Below are positions 39,281-49,090 of a DNA stretch of 64,000 bases, piece after piece (within the stretch, counting starts at the first letter, position 1; every line of letters begins with the position of its first letter). Made by a program: the position numbers and the translations under genes. The notes under the pieces were generated by a model, which was not told where the DNA came from, ran no database searches, and saw only the letters and a list, made by a program, of their open reading frames with translations. The stretch spans positions 496,001-560,000 of the forward strand of contig NW_026250403.1 in the NCBI RefSeq assembly GCF_024521635.1. The letters run 5' to 3'. This DNA comes from Tricharina praecox. Lineage: Eukaryota.

Positions 39281-39486
39281 TTTCGCGTCTTCCAATCCCT
39301 TCATCTCAAGACCCGCTCCTCCTCCTATCTCAACCATCTTTCCTTCACCCACATCTCCAAATCTTTACCCGTACCTTGATTTCAATACCCGCTTCCTGCT
39401 TCTCCAATTCGACACATCCTTACCTTTCACACCTCGTGTAATCGTTTGCACTTTACGCGGTCTTCCTACGGTTCACCTTTACGCGT
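39281..39486 (+). promoter_or_regulatory. Candidate MCB-type (G1/S) elements upstream of DNMT5
   Basis: ACGCGT at 39481-39486 and TTTCGCGT (reverse complement ACGCGAAA) at 39281-39288, about 200 and 400 bp upstream of the ATG. These are short motifs and could occur by chance. Confidence 0.4.
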
Positions 39487-39684
39487 CCCAGACTCCCAGT
39501 TAGTCAGCAGGTTCTGCGACTCGACCCCTCGCCTCATTTGATAATCAACCCCGATATATCCAGCTTACTACCTGATTTCTAATCGGGCTCTTCACCTGCA
39601 CATCGAGTACGTTCCCCAAATCGCTATTCCCTTCCGCTCGTGAAGTCGCACTGACTGTTTTGTTGACGTCTCCTTCGGTAGAGA

Positions 39685-42600
39685 ATGGTTCAAACGAAAC
39701 TATCCTGGAGACCCAAGCCTAAGAAGTCCAAGTCTCCTGTGACTGGCAGCGACGACGATATCGTTATGACCGATTTACCTGAGAGCAGTCCCAGACCGAG
39801 AACACGAAGTGCCGCGAAGGGACGAACGGGGGGGGGTGGCGATGATGGGCGCGACCGCGGCCACGATACCCAAAACGATGATGCGGACGACGACGATATG
39901 GCCAAGGTTACGAATAAGACAAGGCTGCTGCTGGTGGCTGTAGAAGGTGAGGACAAAAATACTGCGTTATCATCTGCCCCCGGTTTCTTTTTCCCTTCGT
40001 CGTGAATTACCATCCCCCTTCGTATCTGCAGTTACTACTCATGTATCCTATCCTTCTACGTCAATCTACTAATCCATAGCATGTTATCATTCATTCGTTA
40101 TCTCCGCTTTGCGCATTTCCGATCATCTCCTTCCATTACCTTTTTGCTTCAGCTCGGAGTCATGGACTGACTTGATTCATAGTACCCAAGAAGCAACGCT
40201 CTCTCACGAACTATTTCTCTCCGAAATCATCAGGCGTCAATGTTGAGGTTCGGCCGGCACCCAAATCTCCTACTCGTCGGTCCAAAGGCAAAGGAAAGGC
40301 GGTGGCAGTGATCTCCAAGCCATCCACATCGAGGCGTCAGTCTCGGAAGAAAATCATTGTCGATTCTTCCGATGAACAGGAAGAAGATGAAGACAACGAT
40401 GATGATGATGATGATGATGAATACGTTGCTGACAAGGAGGTAGTGGAGAGCGAATTTGACGACGATGTCGAATCCGACCTTCAAGATGCGTCTGCCGAAT
40501 CAGACCTTCAAGATGGGACAGACGACGAAACCGGCGGTTCTCAGAATGAAATGCCGGCTAAGAAAGGCAAAGTCCAGACGTTGGCATCTCAGGGCGGCAA
40601 GAAGAAAAAGATGTCGTATACGTGCATTCCTAAGCCGTGTGGTATCAAGGTCGAGTCCAGGCTGGAGGATCAGCCCGGTGGTCTCCCGCCAGTATCCAAT
40701 CTGACTCTCATATTTGACGACATCATTTCGCGAGTTTTGCCATCCGTCGCCAAGTTGATGGGCCCCAATAAGCACAGGAAGTTGAGGGTCGCAACCATGT
40801 GTTCTGGAACGGAATCTCCTCTTTTGGCCCTCGGAATGTTCTCGAAAGCTATTAAGGAGAGAGGTATGGGGCATTTGGAAATCGAGCATGTCTTTTCGTG
40901 CGAGATTGAGCCGTACAAACAGGCGTATATCGAGAGGAATTTCAAGCCCCCCATCCTGTTCCGAGATATCAAGGAAATGGGAAACGAGTTCGCGTAAGTT
41001 CCTTCCCATCCCCTTCGCCTGTAATGCCATGCTGATTGACTGCAGTACGACGGCGTATGGTGCCATGGTCAAAGTACCTGGAGATGTGGACATTCTCATT
41101 GCGGGAACTTCCTGCGTGGACTTCTCCAACCTAAACAACAAACAGAAGTCTTTGGAAGAAGGCGGTGAATCCGGCGACACATTCTTGGGGATGATGCGCT
41201 GGGTTGACAAGCATCGGCCTCTCATCGTCATTCAAGAGAACGTTTGTGGTGCTGCATGGGGTGACATGAGGGAGTTCTACCACAGGTGTGACTACGATGC
41301 CGAGTATACCCGGTTCGACTCCAAAAAATACTACATCCCGCACACTCGCATGCGTGGGTACATGTTTGCGGTCAATGTACAAGGTCTCAGCATCCCCAAT
41401 AAATGGATTGATGCTGTCAAGAAGATGGAGCGCAGGTGCACAACAACCTTGGAAGCGTTTATGCTTCCAGACGACGATCCAAGGGTGTACAAAGCTCGGA
41501 TGCAACTTGCCGGTGATCCTCGTCGTACTGGCCCAATCAAGGCCCGTACTGTCGATTGGGAGAAGTGTGAGGGCCGACATCAGCGAGAACGTATCACGAA
41601 AAAGCTCGGTGATCAGCGGCCAGTAACTGCGTGGCAGGAGGGTGGAGTCTGCAAAACCCTCGATTTCATGTGGCAGGATTGGGGGAGGAAGCAGGTCGAA
41701 CGTGTCCTAGACCTAATGGACATCAATTTCCTCCTTTCCGTCCGGGATGGGTATGATCCGATGTACAAAGCGTCAGTTATCTCACCCTTCTTTCCAGAAA
41801 ACCGCTAACCTTGACCACAGAGCCTTCTGGAATCTGTCTCAAAATGTCGACCGCAACACAATGGGTGGTAAACCGGATGGGATCTCCCCATGCTTGACTC
41901 CACACATGATCGCCTACCTCTGCTACCGTGGTGGACCAATGACCGGAATCGAGGCATTGCACATGCAAGGGCTGCCTATTGACGAGCTGCTTCTTACCCG
42001 TGAAACGTCGCAGCAAATCCAGGACCTCGCAGGCAATGCGATGTCATCGACGGTTGTGGGTACGGCCATACTGTGCGCGTTGATTTTGTCGATGGAACAT
42101 TTGCAAGACCGTTCATCTGACGAGGATGCAATGGCTCTTGATGAGCCCTCGGAAATCAATAACCCCATCGTTGGTGAGGACGAGCTGGAAGAGTCCGCCA
42201 TGGATCTTTCCACAACAGATGCGCTCGAGCTGCGCGATCTCCTTGTGGACGCCGAGAAGTCGAGGCGCGTGTGTGTTTGCGAAGGACGATTTTCAATTAC
42301 CACCAATAAGATCCGTCTTTGTACAGAGTGCGGGTTTACGGCATGCGATAAGTGTGGTGGTCGTCCCAGTCATGAAGTCCCCGAAAATCAAGATCCGATC
42401 GAAAACCGTCTCCAGCCGTTGGAGTTTGAGGCAAAGCTCAAGAGCATCCTATCGATGCGTCTTCGGTTGACAGGTATCGATGATGCGACGTTTCAAAAAC
42501 TGAAGCCCGAGGACGACTCAATTCGCGACCTTGACTGGAAGATCTGGTCCGAGCTAGCCGTTGCAGCTTTCAAAGGAGAGTTCAGGTTCAAGAATCTACT

Positions 42601-45600
42601 TCGTCAGGAGACGTGGACAGTGACATACGATGCTCCAGATGCGCGTCTCGAGCTTATTCTGAACACCAAGAAGCCCGAGTGGCGCATCTTCGCGAAGTGC
42701 CCAATGACGGAAGGCATCACGAGCGAAAAGCGCCGCCTCTCCGCACGCCCGATCGCCCGAATGCTAGTGCACGGCCAGGCTGGCAAGGGTGCATTAGAAG
42801 GTCAGTGGGAATTGTGTCTTCCGGCTTTCCCGCGATTCGACATTTTGGTTCAAGGCATCGATGCAAAGGTCCCATCCTGGCAGAGCACTCTTGGATACAC
42901 GGACAGTGCGACGATGACTAGTGAAGTTTACGGTCGTCTTCGATTTACTGTACCCGACGAGCACAAGGCGAAGTTTGATCAGGATATTTCCGGCGAGTAC
43001 AAGCTCTTGCAAAATTGCGGGACTGCATTGGGTTCTCTCCACAAGAGAATTGACGATGATGGTGCGGTTCCGTTGTTTTGCTTCATTGATCAGAAGAGAA
43101 CTGGGGATGGGTCGAACGACTCGTTTGTGTTTGCATCTGATCATCGTCGACTCGGGTACGGAGAGTACCGACCTCTGACCGCCTACCTTGCTCCTACCTG
43201 GAGACAACGGGACGCAACGGCAGAACCCCGCAAAGTTGCGACCCTCATTGACGGTCAGTGGGTTCCCGTCAAAGCTCGGTTGGGTCCGCCTCCGGTCTCG
43301 CAATCCGCTAAGGACGGAATCTTGTCGGTGCCGGGGCCGGATGGCTTGAACTTCCAGATTTCCAAGGAAGACTGCGGCTCGGCACGGACCGTATTGCAGT
43401 GCAAGGTGCCACTCCGTGGTCAGGTTGAAGCCATATGGCCGAGAGGGAAATGGATTGAAGTGGACTCCATTCACGAACGTGCGACATACGAATCCCTTGC
43501 TTGGCTTACCGAGCGGGTGCGATCACTCAAGCAATTGGAACAGTGGACAACTCTGGAACTTCCCGAATGCGGTCTTGACGGCTGCAATCGTTGCGCTCCA
43601 CCGCATCCACAGCTCAAGTGGTTGTTTGTGAAGAACAAATTTAAACCCTTTGAGGATCCGCAACAGGCTGCACCGTACGAGCGAGCCTTAAAGGCACGCC
43701 CTTCCCCTTTCGTGACCCATGTCAAGCTTGACGACGGAGGCGCCGGAGTTCTCAAGATTGGGCTCAATGTGGCTACCCTAGTTCATCGAGCACTGTTTAG
43801 GATGCCAGCTGAAGTTCGTGGAGCACCTCTCCTCAGCTGGAGGCTTGTGACCGACTACATTCCGGAACCGAGGCTCCTGTTGCCATTTTACTCCCTGGCT
43901 TCCAACAAGAATGATGTGGAAGCAGAACAACCGCCAAACTTTATCACTCCATTGCGCCCAGAGCAGCTTAGATCGCTGTCTTGGATGAAAGAGCAGGAGA
44001 AAGAAGATGTCATTCCGTTCATGGAGGAAGAGGTTGCAGAAGTTTTGCTGCCTCACCTCAACTGGCGAGCGGAAGGCAAGGCGGAGCGTCCGAATTACGT
44101 CTGGGGTGGTGTCCTGGCAGATGAAGTTGGTTATGGCAAGACAGCCATCACCCTCGGTCTCATCGATTCCACACATCATAGCATCAAGCTTCCCGACAAG
44201 ATGCCCGGAGCCATCCCAATCAAGGCGACATTAGTGGTCATTCCTAGCCATCTCGCCGGGCAGTGGACAGATGAGATCAAAAAGTTCACGGGTACCCGAT
44301 ACAAGGTTATCAAGATCCTATCACAGGCAGATCTCAACAAGGTGAGTGTCAAGGAGATGATGCAGGCCGACATCGTGGTTGCTAGTGCGCCCATCTTCCA
44401 GTCGGACAAGTACATTTCGAACTTGGCGCTATTTGCTGGTACTGCGACTGCCGCAGCTGGCCAAGGAAGACGTTTTTTCGAATGGCAGAGGCAGGCTTTG
44501 GTCGATCTGGCTGTTCAGGTTGATCACATTCGTGAGATGGGTGCGGCAGGTGCTTGGGCGAGGATTGACGAAGCAAGCCGTCGCTTGGGCCGGGAAGCGA
44601 ATGAACCTGCCGAGGTGTTCGTGCAAAAAAAGCGTTTGACTGGATCTGCATATGCCAAATCCAAGGAGCAAACGGGATCGAAGCGGATGAGAAGCACTGA
44701 TGACGACGATAGTGACGTGGATTCAGTGTCTGAGGAGGGCACGTCGTCTGATCGAGCCAAAAAATCACGCCAGAGCATGATCGGCCGGGACCCCTGGAAA
44801 CTAAAGAACCACCTCGTTCAAAAAGATTGGACCCGAATGGTGACACCTCCTTTCGAGATGTTCCAATTCAACCGCTTGGTCGTCGATGAGTTCACCTATT
44901 ACAATGGGCAGATTCACGCCGGTATCATCAGCTTGAAGGCTCGATATCGTTGGGTCCTTTCTGGTACTCCCCCGCTTGACGACTTTGAAGATGTCAAGAC
45001 CATAGCCGCTTTTCTTAACATACACCTGGGAATCGAGGACGATCAAGTCGGAAAAGATCAGAATAAAAAGCGAATTCAGAAGGACATGACTGGTAAGAGC
45101 GGCCTCGCCCAGTGATATTGCTGATGCTAATTCAACTAGTTGTGGAACTATTCACGAATTTTAGAGAGATTCATTCACCGTATTGGCATACTCGGAGACA
45201 ACAAGTTGCCCAGGCGTTCCTCAATCAGTTCGTGCGTCAAAACTACGCCGAGATCGACGAGATTCCTTACCAGGAGTTCATTGTTCCGGTTAAGCTACCC
45301 GCTGCGGAGAGAGCCATCTACCTCGAGCTTGAGCACTACCTTCAAGCGTTGGACTATAATCTCAAGCGGTCCAAGCACAAGATGGACAACGATCGGGACC
45401 GTCGTCAACAGGAAGCGCTAGGTGATTCCGAAACGGCAGAAGAAGCCTTGATCAAACGTTGCTCGCACTTTGATCTTGACGGATCTCGGAGCAACGAAGA
45501 TAATGCCGTTCAGGCGTGTGATGTCATTGTCGAGGAGCGCAAGAAGCAACTTCACAGCTGTTGTGAGGACATCCGCCGCTCTCTCAAGGATGCCCTGACG

Positions 45601-46841
45601 AGATACAAGCAAATTTCGTCTAAGGAATGGCAGGCGGACACTGGAGCCCGATCGAACGACAAGCGCCCCAAGAACCTCTTCATGGAGTTTGTTGAGCAGT
45701 GTCGTACTGGCGGTGTTGGAGATCCTGACGCCAACCACGATATCAAAGCCCTTCTTGAAGAGGCATTTGCTGCTCCGAAATCCTTCAAGGTGGTCTATGC
45801 GGATGGCTCTGTCGCTGATCCGAAGATCTCCGCGAAGGAACCACCATCGGCTTCGAACAAAAAAGGCAAGAAGGCAAAAGTCAAAGTTGATGAAGCAGTG
45901 GATGAAACCCCTCTGGACACGCTGGAACGGATTGAGCAACTCAAGAGCAAGGTCATCTATCTTCGTGGGCTGGCCAGGAAGGAGCTAGCTGGTCGCCATC
46001 GATCTTTGCGATACTTCACTGTTGTCCGTGACCTTCAGAAGTCGGCCTTGCCGGGCGGCGCCGTCGTTCAAGTCACATGCCCTGGTTGTAAACGATCGGA
46101 CCTGGAACTTTCAGAAATCGCCGTCCTCTCGTCGTGCGGTCACAAAGGATGTTACGATTGCCTTCGCGAAGCCGCGCGCCTCACCCAGTGTTTGACGGAG
46201 GGCTGTCAAGCTGCCACTCGTGCATTGGCGGTTGTCAAGGCCGACTCTCTAGGCGCAGAGGACAAGCGCGACGGAATCGGACGCCACCACGGCAAGAAGC
46301 TCGAGAAAATCGTCGAATTGATCAAGAACCACATTCCAAAGAATGAAAAAGTTTTGTTGTTCATCCAATTCGGCGACCTCATGACCCGCGCTCAGAAGAT
46401 CCTGACCGCCAGTGGCATCAAGTGGGCAAGGATTGAGGGAAATTCCAAGAAGAAGTCGACTACTGTCCAGGATTTCCAGAACGACCAGGGAGAAAATAGC
46501 GCCAAGGTTATGATTCTGAACGTGACTGCCGAGAGCTCCTCCGGCTCGTAAGTATAACTGGGTTTTCTCTCATGATTGATGACACAGCTAACATTGTTAC
46601 TAGGAACTTCACTGTTGCGAACCACGCCATCTTCCTGTCGCCACTTTTGACTACGACTGATTACGAGTATCAATCGTCGGAGACACAGGCGATCGGACGT
46701 ATTCGCCGCTACGGGCAGACTCGCAAGGTTCACATCTGGCGCTTCATGTCTGAAGACACGATGGACGTCGAAATCTACGAGGGCAGGACTGGCGAGAAGC
46801 GCGACAGCGATTCCTTCAAGGCCAAGATTTACGAGGTATGA
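39685..46841 (+). CDS. DNMT5: DNMT5: C5-cytosine DNA methyltransferase fused to a SNF2 ATPase with RING insert; exons 39685-39946, 40183-40993, 41046-41771, 41821-45092, 45140-46547, 46604-46841; about 2238 aa
   Basis: Methyltransferase motifs ATMCSGTE (I), FSCEIEPYK (II), AGTSCVDFS (IV), IQENV (VI), PHTRMRGY (VIII), DLAGNAMS (X). SNF2 motifs GGVLADEVGYGKT, VVDEF, LSGTP, ETQAIGRIRRYGQ. RING CPGC...SCGHKGCYDC...C...C. All five introns keep the frame; exon 1 is the least certain. Confidence 0.95.
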
Positions 46842-47885: not shown

Positions 47886-48962
47886 CTACGCCTTCCAATC
47901 CCTCCTCATGACAGTCCTCACCGCCAACTTGGTCACGGTAGTGACACCGCCCGAAGCCGTCGCTGTGCATGGGGGCTGCGACAACGTGGGCCACTGCGTG
48001 GTCTTCCCGCCGGTGCACGCGGGGTTGAACATGCAGTAGGTGTACTCGCCGCCGCAGGTATTGGGGTAGCCGGTGCAGATCTTATCGCAGGAGGTGGTGA
48101 TGGAGGGGTTTGGGGTGGGAGTGGGAGTGCACGCCGGCAGCGAGAACGTTGGCCACTGCGTCGTCGTGCCGCCGGTGCACGCCGGGTCGGCCATGCAGTA
48201 GTTGTACAAGCCGCCGCAGGTATTGGGGTAGCCGGTGCAGATGCTATCGCAGGAGGCTGAGGAGGAGGCGGGGGTGGGGGTTGGGCTGGGCGTGCATGGT
48301 GGAGTGCTGAAGGTGGGCGATATACCGCCGTTGCAGCGCGGGTTCTCGAAACACCCGCCGTACCGGTAGCCGCATGGGTTCAGGTAGTCGACGCAGATGG
48401 TGCCGCAGGGCTCGCTGACTGTGGTGCTGGCGCTGGGTGTACAGGATGGCGTGGTGAACGTCGGCTTGATCCCGCCGTTGCATTGCGGGTCCTCGTAGCA
48501 GCCACCGTATTTCATCCCGCAGGTGTTGATGGCGTCCACGCAGATGGTGCGGCACGGCTCCGTGGTGGTGCTGCTGGTGTTGGTGCATGGTGGTGGGGTG
48601 AACGTGGGCCACGCGGTGCCGCCGGTGCACTTCGGGTCCGGGAAACAGCCTCCGTACATCGAGCCGCAGTCGTTGATGTAGTCCGCACAGATGGTTGGGC
48701 ATGGCGTGGTGGACGGGAGGATCTCGGTGATCGTTGTCGAGTTGCACGCCGGAGCGGTGAACGTGGGCCAGGCGGTGCCGCCGGTACACTTCGGATCAGC
48801 GAAGCAGCCGCCATAGGTAGAACCACACTCGTTGATGTAGTCAGCGCAGATGCTCTGGCACGAGGCGGTCATCGTGGTGATGGTGGACGGCTTGGCCTTG
48901 GTCTTGGAGGAGACGACGGCCGCGGCAGCAAAGCCGGCCGATGCGAAGAGCAGGAGAAGCAT
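47886..48962 (-). CDS. Secreted cysteine-rich protein with six copies of a ~39-aa 6-Cys module; 358 aa, intronless
   Basis: Signal peptide MLLLLFASAGFAAA. Module consensus CxxICxDxxNxCGxxYGGCxxxPxCxGG...PTFxxPxC, separated by Thr/Ser/Pro linkers. Strong GC3 codon bias. Confidence 0.9.
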   Translation of the reverse strand: MLLLLFASAGFAAAAVVSSKTKAKPSTITTMTASCQSICADYINECGSTYGGCFADPKCTGGTAWPTFTAPACNSTTITEILPSTTPCPTICADYINDCGSMYGGCFPDPKCTGGTAWPTFTPPPCTNTSSTTTEPCRTICVDAINTCGMKYGGCYEDPQCNGGIKPTFTTPSCTPSASTTVSEPCGTICVDYLNPCGYRYGGCFENPRCNGGISPTFSTPPCTPSPTPTPASSSASCDSICTGYPNTCGGLYNYCMADPACTGGTTTQWPTFSLPACTPTPTPNPSITTSCDKICTGYPNTCGGEYTYCMFNPACTGGKTTQWPTLSQPPCTATASGGVTTVTKLAVRTVMRRDWKA

Positions 48963-49090
48963 GTTTGGAGATGGGCCTCTGGGTATGAATCTGAGCGAGT
49001 GAGGAGCGGGTGATGATCAGTATGTACCGAAGGCTCCAATGTTCTAGTCACCGTGATGCTGCAGATGCAAGATGCATATGGCAGACCCTC

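Follow-up and report, generated by a model that had tools for sequence, protein, structure and literature searches.

How maintenance methylases reach hemimethylated DNA in time is central to epigenetic inheritance. In the case of mammalian DNMT1, a PCNA-binding domain concentrates the enzyme at the replication fork (relevant passages of the 2026 review PMC13297926), and the enzyme is entered in a table of PCNA partners (PMC9690074, the part concerned). DNMT5, too, acts on hemimethylated CG to maintain methylation, as described in passages of the Dumesic and Catania preprints and of PMC13297926; ATP-dependent activity limited to hemimethylated CG is known for the Cryptococcus enzyme only (PMC13297926 and Dumesic preprint, in the corresponding passages). 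Mechanistic work on DNMT5 has so far been done on Cryptococcus only. There the enzyme is recruited via H3K9me/HP1 and a UHRF1 homologue. A passage of the review describes DNMT5 as independent of the replication apparatus. Here we describe the DNMT5 gene of Tricharina praecox, located in a 64,000-nucleotide stretch of contig NW_026250403.1 (assembly GCF_024521635.1, positions 496,001 to 560,000 of the forward strand), which we refer to as the window and in which all coordinates are given. Ahead of its methyltransferase domain the protein carries a PCNA-interacting protein (PIP) box, QRSLTNYF, that recurs at the corresponding place in DNMT5 of many fungi and that we regard as a probable PCNA docking site.

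The window protein is a DNMT5, with a C5 methyltransferase followed by an SNF2-type ATPase in a single polypeptide. Its coding region extends from 39685 to 46841 on the forward strand, as do all DNMT5 features described below, and comprises seven coding exons that join into one open frame of 2238 amino acids; the model draws on spliced contigs and the joined frame, on Pfam and on orthologues. Pfam searches with pieces of the product returned DNA_methylase (PF00145, E 9.4e-10) and SNF2-related (PF00176, E 1.6e-17), and a weak match to Helicase_C (16.7 bits, cut-off 23.5). Among the matches listed, the best full-length ones are fungal proteins of 2000–2300 amino acids with an identical Pfam set; relatives bear the name ‘DNA (cytosine-5-)-methyltransferase dmt5’, and one homologue, P0253, gives a match to chain 7r76_A of a solved DNMT5 structure. 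Methyltransferase motif I, CSGTESP within ATMCSGTESPLLA, is encoded at 40800..40820, begins at residue 294 of the product, and is invariant in our alignment A1.

The core of the PIP box, QRSLTNYF (40194..40217, residues 92–99), is an exact match to the pattern Q-x-x-[LIM]-x-x-[FY]-[FY] and can be read directly from the sequence, just as a preliminary description of this DNA had put it. Together with its basic flanks, seen in the translation and fitting the logo of the family, it forms the peptide PKKQRSLTNYFSPK at 40185..40226. The preliminary description was right about the peptide and its basic surroundings; the edges it gave (40183..40225) are off by one or two bases, bases 40183–40184 being the last two of a split Val codon (g|ta). 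QRSLTNYF is the sole strict match within the 2238 residues, and roughly 0.005–0.01 such matches are expected in one protein of this size. The Q and the final F of the motif are invariant in A1, whose rows were picked for having the motif.

Spliced contigs from two studies, X1 with 7296 nucleotides and X2 with 7247 nucleotides, place the motif in the mature transcript. They differ from the window at 0–1 positions, and each lacks six GT..AG stretches, including an intron in the leader; their sources carry no RNA record, and their spliced nature was recognised from the alignment to the window. Both skip the first intron of the coding region, 236 nucleotides at 39947..40182 (GTGAGG...TCATAG), which the preliminary description had proposed. 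Inside this intron we found only a 164-nucleotide contig, at a depth of 3.1 vs 231.2 for the spliced contig. The motif had also been claimed to be in frame with the methyltransferase exon, and joining the six splices into the single 2238-residue frame bears this out. The remark on the listed open reading frame holds as well: that frame starts at 40176, directly after a stop within the intron.

Coding exon 1 (39685..39946) opens with the first AUG and encodes an acidic/basic low-complexity tail (residues 1–87 and the first base of codon 88). Coding exon 2 (40183..40993) contains the PIP box, a basic and acidic linker predicted to be disordered, and the start of the C5-methyltransferase domain, as judged from the contigs, the translation and the predicted local distance difference test (pLDDT). 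The remaining introns of the coding region, likewise skipped in both contigs, are 40994-41045, 41772-41820, 45093-45139 (with a 1-nucleotide ambiguity in placement) and 46548-46603. The 5′ untranslated exon, 39316..39606 in X1/X2, begins at 39316 or further 5′, since contigs cannot show the true 5′ end, and contains no ATG. It is followed by a 75-nucleotide intron (39607..39681, GTACGT...GGTAG; joint 39606>39682 in both contigs), whose 3′ end lies three bases ahead of the start codon.

The ATG at 39685 (codon 39685-39687) is the first one, with none in the 294-nucleotide leader, spliced or unspliced; an in-frame TAA lies 10 codons 5′ of it, and its context has A at –3 and G at +4. Later Met codons stand at residues 28 and 72, both ahead of the motif, and then at residue 211. 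All plausible starts of DNMT5 are upstream of the PIP motif, although the contigs leave the true 5′ end open, and a start codon downstream of the motif is rejected, as the first AUG, Met 28 and Met 72 all precede it. Exclusion of the motif from the translated mRNA, a possibility that the preliminary description had raised, does not occur in this model: the motif is spliced in and lies downstream of the first AUG, as shown by the contigs and the joined frame.

The motif sits in a domain-free tail that is predicted to be disordered. No Pfam family was detected in exon 1 or in the 270-residue exon 2 at E <= 0.01; this agrees with the earlier observation that a chromodomain is absent, and leads us to reject a chromodomain hidden in the tail. 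In an AlphaFold2 model of exon 2, built from a 29-row alignment, the first ~150 residues have pLDDT of 48–59 and are modelled without regular secondary structure. The lone exception is a helix three residues long, over the L-T-N of the motif, which is of low confidence and can be taken as a hint only. Model confidence is high only from DLPP...motif I onward, with pLDDT of 86–95 around motif I. The low pLDDT and the lack of a Pfam family are in line with the disorder that had been assumed for this region. By composition, the first 230 residues are 18% K+R, 22% D+E and 30% S/T/P/G, and contain five aromatic residues, two of which are the Y-F of the motif.

To evaluate conservation we used four homologue samples: exon 2 as query (best 120 of 200 matches, length 474–2000 amino acids), the 1132-residue central open reading frame as query for longer proteins (best 120 of 459 matches), a library-wide HMMER search with exon 2 (best 150 of 1033 matches), and the chromodomain-bearing N-terminus of Naematelia as query (best 120 of 730 matches). 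The counts of homologues given below are counts among the matches listed. Methyltransferase motif I, in the form C-[ST]-G-T-[ED]-x-P, served as an anchor dividing each protein into upstream and downstream parts. The strict motif was found upstream in 15/120 proteins of the first set and downstream in 1 protein. In the full-length set (119 proteins, one of them missed by the anchor expression), it was present upstream in 93/118, with a single motif per protein over 15,506 upstream residues and none over 244,636 downstream ones. Over all homologues gathered up to that stage of the survey, 139/356 proteins carried 141 motifs in 63,184 upstream residues, against 1 in the 438,909 residues downstream. 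When the upstream regions were each shuffled 200 times, motifs averaged 0.24 and no shuffle contained more than 2. At the level of sequence, conservation of the motif in DNMT5 is beyond chance. A logo of 136 aligned instances reads K-x-K-x-R-P-K-G-Q-K-S-I-T-S-F-F-G-G-P-K-K-K, which is a canonical PIP box with basic flanks, and the commonest form of the motif is Q-K-S-I-T-S-F-F.

These numbers bear on the alternative that the motif arose by chance or is a neutral remnant, without function in this fungus today. The motif is short, and there are lineages in which it is lost or decayed (strict matches 0/19 in Tremellomycetes and 0/7 in Pucciniomycotina), as a remnant would allow. The excess of 141 motifs over a shuffle mean of 0.24, the single match in the whole downstream sequence, and the retention of the motif in all complete Pezizomycete N-termini examined, despite divergence of the flanks, leave this alternative with almost no credibility, and as a chance match the motif is rejected on the comparison with shuffles.

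We next consider how the motif is distributed among fungal groups, counting proteins in which the stretch ahead of motif I is 90 residues or longer. The strict motif is present in 106/123 Agaricomycetes (118/123 with a relaxed Q-type pattern), 6/8 Pezizomycetes (relaxed, 6/8), 6/9 Chytridiomycota (relaxed, 7/9) and 3/6 Ustilaginomycotina (relaxed, 3/6), two more of the latter having H or K for Q (HGRITSFF, KGRITSFF). It is present in 1/11 Dothideomycetes, where the relaxed pattern reaches 5/11 (e.g. QSSLSAFL), and in 2/6 other Pezizomycotina (relaxed, 2/6). Neither pattern was found in Pucciniomycotina (0/7 strict, 0/7 relaxed), Eurotiomycetes (0/2, 0/2) or Saccharomycotina (0/2, 0/2), and 1/4 non-fungal proteins is positive with both, this being a Physarum homologue with two copies. 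The 102 Agaricomycete-like rows of the central-frame set comprise 83 strict and 19 other ones; these 19 are 7 models that look truncated (at most 85 upstream residues) and 12 near-matches, one or two positions off and at an equivalent place, for example QKSLDTFL, QATLDSFV, QSTLNSFI and QKSITAFI. Some relaxed Q-type matches in Tremellomycetes, such as QTQLAGLV in P0372, may be due to chance.

As these examples illustrate, an aliphatic last residue (FL, FI or FV) is tolerated in some Agaricomycetes and Dothideomycetes. Such endings would suit the alternative that the conserved motif docks a different partner and not PCNA, for example another hub protein that recognises PIP-like aromatic motifs or, by intramolecular contact, the domains of DNMT5 itself. 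This alternative also gains from the fact that conservation proves constraint rather than the identity of the partner, and from the existence of PIP-like motifs beyond the strict consensus, described in the relevant part of PMC9690074. We nevertheless consider it unlikely: the commonest form together with its basic flanks, seen over the 136 aligned instances, is the strict PCNA consensus, an invariant Q is typical of PCNA partners, and no result points to another partner. PCNA docking remains the preferred reading.

The relatives closest to the window were compared in a Pezizomycete alignment of the window and 18 rows. Aligned with the window motif are QTTIEGYF in Geopyxis, QLSITNFF in Rhizina, QTALTDYF in Ascodesmis, QLSMDTFF in Peziza, QLSMMNFF in Terfezia and QASITSFF in Ascobolus. 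The Tuber indicum model (P0129) starts at a Met inside the motif (MDNYF), and the Pyronema omphalodes model (P0127) has no tail at all, although QGTLTSHF is found in P0246, its near-twin; by comparison of the sequences, both Pezizomycete ‘negatives’ are annotation artefacts. The survey thereby flags gene-model errors, motif-bearing N-terminal exons being missing in some annotations. In Pezizomycetes the motif was present in all complete N-termini examined, with the flanking tail diverged past easy alignment. The alignment of orthologues suggested in the preliminary description therefore finds the motif kept in close relatives, by the Pezizomycete alignment, and in distant ones, by the overall count of strict matches.

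The position of the motif varies, from about residue 10–15 in Agaricomycetes to 43–137 in Pezizomycetes (92 in the window), where it stands behind an additional acidic extension. Across fungal DNMT5 it keeps its place ahead of the methyltransferase domain, with basic residues on both sides, in a surrounding tail that can barely be aligned. In a FastTree tree built from 79 rows of the methyltransferase region, the window falls inside Pezizomycetes and groups with Geopyxis and Ascodesmis with a support of 100; identity between the window and Geopyxis is 68% over 651 columns. Rows with the motif are found among the chytrids, Ustilaginomycotina, Agaricomycetes and Pezizomycetes of this tree. The relaxed motif state must change at least 16 times on it, gain and loss being indistinguishable from the tree. 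The breadth of the distribution suggests that the motif is family-wide and probably ancestral, with repeated loss. It is no trait peculiar to one fungus or to Pezizomycotina, as the preliminary description of this single gene could be taken to imply, since it is the commonest state in Agaricomycetes, Pezizomycetes, Ustilaginomycotina and chytrids.

The relation of the motif to the chromodomain was examined as well. Tremellomycetes have the N-terminal chromodomain familiar from Cryptococcus and no strict PIP box (0/19). Directly behind the chromodomain, a decayed motif is seen in some of them: Naematelia (KGDLRNFF), Tremella (NGDIRNFF), Kockovaella (QGDLRNWF), Kwoniella (LGIKGFF types) and Vanrija (QRTVLDLL). 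The relaxed patterns also match the chromodomain end in Tremellomycetes (DDPPVLEFY); these matches are not PIP candidates and were not counted. Neither a strict nor a decayed motif was found in the three Cryptococcus species of the set. The Chromo family was matched in Tremella P0375 (residues 37–91), Naematelia P0008 (81–127) and the chytrid Borealophlyctis P0150 (17–66), and the last of these proteins contains both modules, with QATLDSFF at residue 146 in addition to its chromodomain. Thus, a PIP box can coexist with a chromodomain. In three Spizellomycete chytrids, P0383 Powellomyces, P0386 Gaertneriomyces and P0407 Thoreauomyces, we observed a chromodomain inside the SNF2 region (~1455–1552), which suggests separate chromodomain insertions in DNMT5.

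Judging by the proteins surveyed, the chromodomain is the more variable module of DNMT5 and the PIP box the more general one. A passage of the Catania preprint has the family ‘characterized by an N-terminal chromodomain’; in our survey, an N-terminal chromodomain holds for only part of the fungi. A PIP-less Cryptococcus enzyme would explain why work on Cryptococcus has not met the PIP box.

We propose that the motif is a functional PIP box that probably docks DNMT5 on PCNA behind the replication fork, and so raises the local concentration of the enzyme at hemimethylated CG. The short linear motif in the disordered N-terminal tail would bind PCNA rings remaining on newly replicated DNA, and an ATP-dependent maintenance CG methyltransferase would become concentrated where hemimethylated CG arises, as DNMT1 is by its PCNA-binding domain. 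The sequence of the motif, its expression, the predicted disorder around it and its conservation are shown; PCNA as the partner, binding at forks, and faster or securer maintenance methylation are inferred from them. Direct recruitment to forks via PCNA, which the preliminary description had suggested, is to this extent partly supported. By analogy with DNMT1, PCNA binding would be expected to act on the kinetics of methylation and to overlap in part with other ways of recruiting the enzyme, without being essential. The consensus given for PCNA partners in the pertinent part of PMC9690074 is Qxx[I/L]xxFF, and a passage of the Dumesic preprint groups the SNF2 domain of DNMT5 with Rad5/HLTF/SHPRH, proteins linked to replication forks.

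Several observations weigh against this reading. Loss of PCNA binding in DNMT1 is reportedly of modest effect. The counts are dominated by Agaricomycetes, and the motif is shared by descent, so that rows are not independent events and motif counts measure constraint, not independent origins. The groups were set by hand from source names, with most unnamed proteins left out and P0244 taken as an Agaricomycete by its id range. The motif is missing in the 7 Pucciniomycotina, the 2 Eurotiomycetes, the 2 Saccharomycotina and the three Cryptococcus species, and its absence from several DNMT5 lineages means that the core activity of DNMT5 does not depend on it. In the aligned part of 7r76_A (chain residues 29–98, and 96 onward), no PIP box was found by eye; we take this chain to be from C. 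neoformans, partly on account of the review PMC13297926. Finally, PIP-like motifs can serve other partners, according to the part of PMC9690074 devoted to them.

A different consequence of PCNA binding would be destruction rather than recruitment. If the motif were a PIP degron, binding to chromatin-loaded PCNA would lead to ubiquitylation of DNMT5 and its destruction in S phase, and would thus limit the enzyme. PIP degrons, found in CRL4-Cdt2 substrates, are defined by T-D at motif positions 5–6 together with a basic residue that follows the aromatic pair at +4. Parts of this signature occur in the family: Thr is found at position 5 in 54/136 aligned instances, as well as in the window, and Lys at +4 in 64/136. 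However, Asp at position 6 occurs in only 4/136, and in the window T is followed by N, while +4 is Ser and Lys stands at +3. PIP degrons are high-affinity PIP variants (PMC9690074, in the section concerned). S-phase destruction is hard to square with a maintenance role. We consider a degron highly improbable and reject it on the T-D pair and the basic +4 residue, both of which are lacking in the window. Recruitment to PCNA remains the reading we favor.

Several further elements were noticed in the tail. Residues 80–88, RLLLVAVEV (39922-39946 and 40183-40184), directly precede the PIP box. The pattern [KR]-[LM]-[FL]-[LM]-V-A-V-E-[IV] is kept in the window, Geopyxis, Rhizina, Peziza and Terfezia; Ascobolus has RLFMKAVEI, and the pattern is missing in Agaricomycetes. 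It bears a possible resemblance to a V-x-V-x-V type core that binds the HP1 chromoshadow domain or interacts with SUMO. Near the N-terminus, Pezizomycete DNMT5 tails have in common an acidic run with D-[ILV]-V-M-x-[DE] after it (DDDIVMTD in the window, residues 23–30, 39751-39774), which looks like a SUMO-interacting motif. An acidic stretch with a terminal aromatic residue (DSSDEQEEDEDNDDDDDDDEYV, 40362-40427) is located 60–90 residues C-terminal of the PIP box. Its pattern, D/E-rich and then [FY]-[VAI]-P or similar (e.g. DDESDFV), recurs in Pezizomycetes, as well as in many of the short representatives and in the Cryptococcus-type chain of solved structure. Part of this region is a (GAT)n repeat, and 40372-40428 is skipped in the read alignment.

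Elsewhere in the window, a 376-codon open frame on the reverse strand (47886-49016) encodes a Thr/Ser- and Cys-rich repeat protein with the repeat unit C-x-x-I-C-x-D-Y-I-N-x-C-G-x-x-Y-G-G-C-F-x-D-P-x-C-x-G-G. A Pfam scan of this product gave no match; it may be a secreted cysteine-rich repeat protein.

The preliminary description was not aware of any account of this motif, and we found none either: a link of DNMT5 with PCNA or with a PIP box did not appear in full-text literature searches, subscription literature and supplements being outside their scope. The matching passages of PMC13297926, the CDCA7-HELLS preprint, the Dumesic and Catania preprints, PMC8330077, PMC9409253 and PMC8566409 contain no DNMT5-PCNA link. 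As far as the sequence comparison goes, DNMT5 is a new candidate client of the well-known PIP-box class, a testable and moderately surprising lead that bears on how epigenetic inheritance through DNMT5 is understood.

The presence of the motif in more than 100 orthologues of DNMT5, in chytrids as well as in mushrooms and cup fungi, suggests direct replication coupling in most fungi, which would be an independent or an anciently shared solution relative to DNMT1. We can extend this, with real hesitation and somewhat more doubt than confidence, to a general proposal, in which the PIP box would be the ancestral and prevailing N-terminal module of fungal DNMT5, most of these enzymes would be coupled to replication via PCNA, and the PIP-less, chromodomain-bearing Cryptococcus enzyme would be a derived exception. 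The view of a replication-independent DNMT5, which rests on the Cryptococcus enzyme, would then have been drawn from that exception. A bolder corollary concerns the SNF2-RING module. As this module of DNMT5 is of the Rad5/HLTF type, it may act on PCNA, and the PIP box may place it there, to act on PCNA itself or on PCNA-bound substrates. DNMT5 would then be a one-polypeptide counterpart of the DNMT1-UHRF1-PCNA system.

Among known proteins, mammalian DNMT1 offers a close parallel. DNMT1 and DNMT5 alike maintain CG methylation, and each has, in a flexible N-terminus, a PIP-type motif ahead of the catalytic part and with basic flanks. They differ in that DNMT5 belongs to a different DNMT family, has a fused SNF2 ATPase and has none of the other N-terminal domains of DNMT1; PCNA binding is shown for DNMT1, whereas for DNMT5 it would be expected by analogy. 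The preliminary description spoke of convergence on the DNMT1 strategy, and at the level of families the resemblance is fair; what needs amending is its attribution to this one DNMT5, as the motif looks ancestral within fungal DNMT5.

Near-N-terminal PIP boxes are a feature of the replication-linked repair and ligation enzymes DNA ligase I, UNG2 and MSH6, where Q-x-x-[IL]-x-x-F-F occurs in the first tens of residues, with small and basic residues after it. DNMT5 of Agaricomycetes matches this pattern, while the Pezizomycete motif is located further in. Rad5, HLTF and SHPRH form the subfamily to which the DNMT5 ATPase is assigned in the relevant passage of the Dumesic preprint; the methyltransferase domain is absent in those proteins, and Rad5 is another entry in the table of PCNA partners (PMC9690074, as above). 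The Cryptococcus neoformans Dnmt5 (structures 7r76, 7r77, 7r78 and 7t02) is of the same family as the window protein, has the same order of methyltransferase, SNF2 and helicase C parts, and likewise has the conserved DLPPI...RKLRVATMCSGTESP where the catalytic domain is entered. The N-termini set the two apart: Cryptococcus-type Dnmt5 has an H3K9me-reading chromodomain, described in passages of the Catania preprint, and no strict PIP box, whereas the DNMT5 of the window has a PIP box and no chromodomain.

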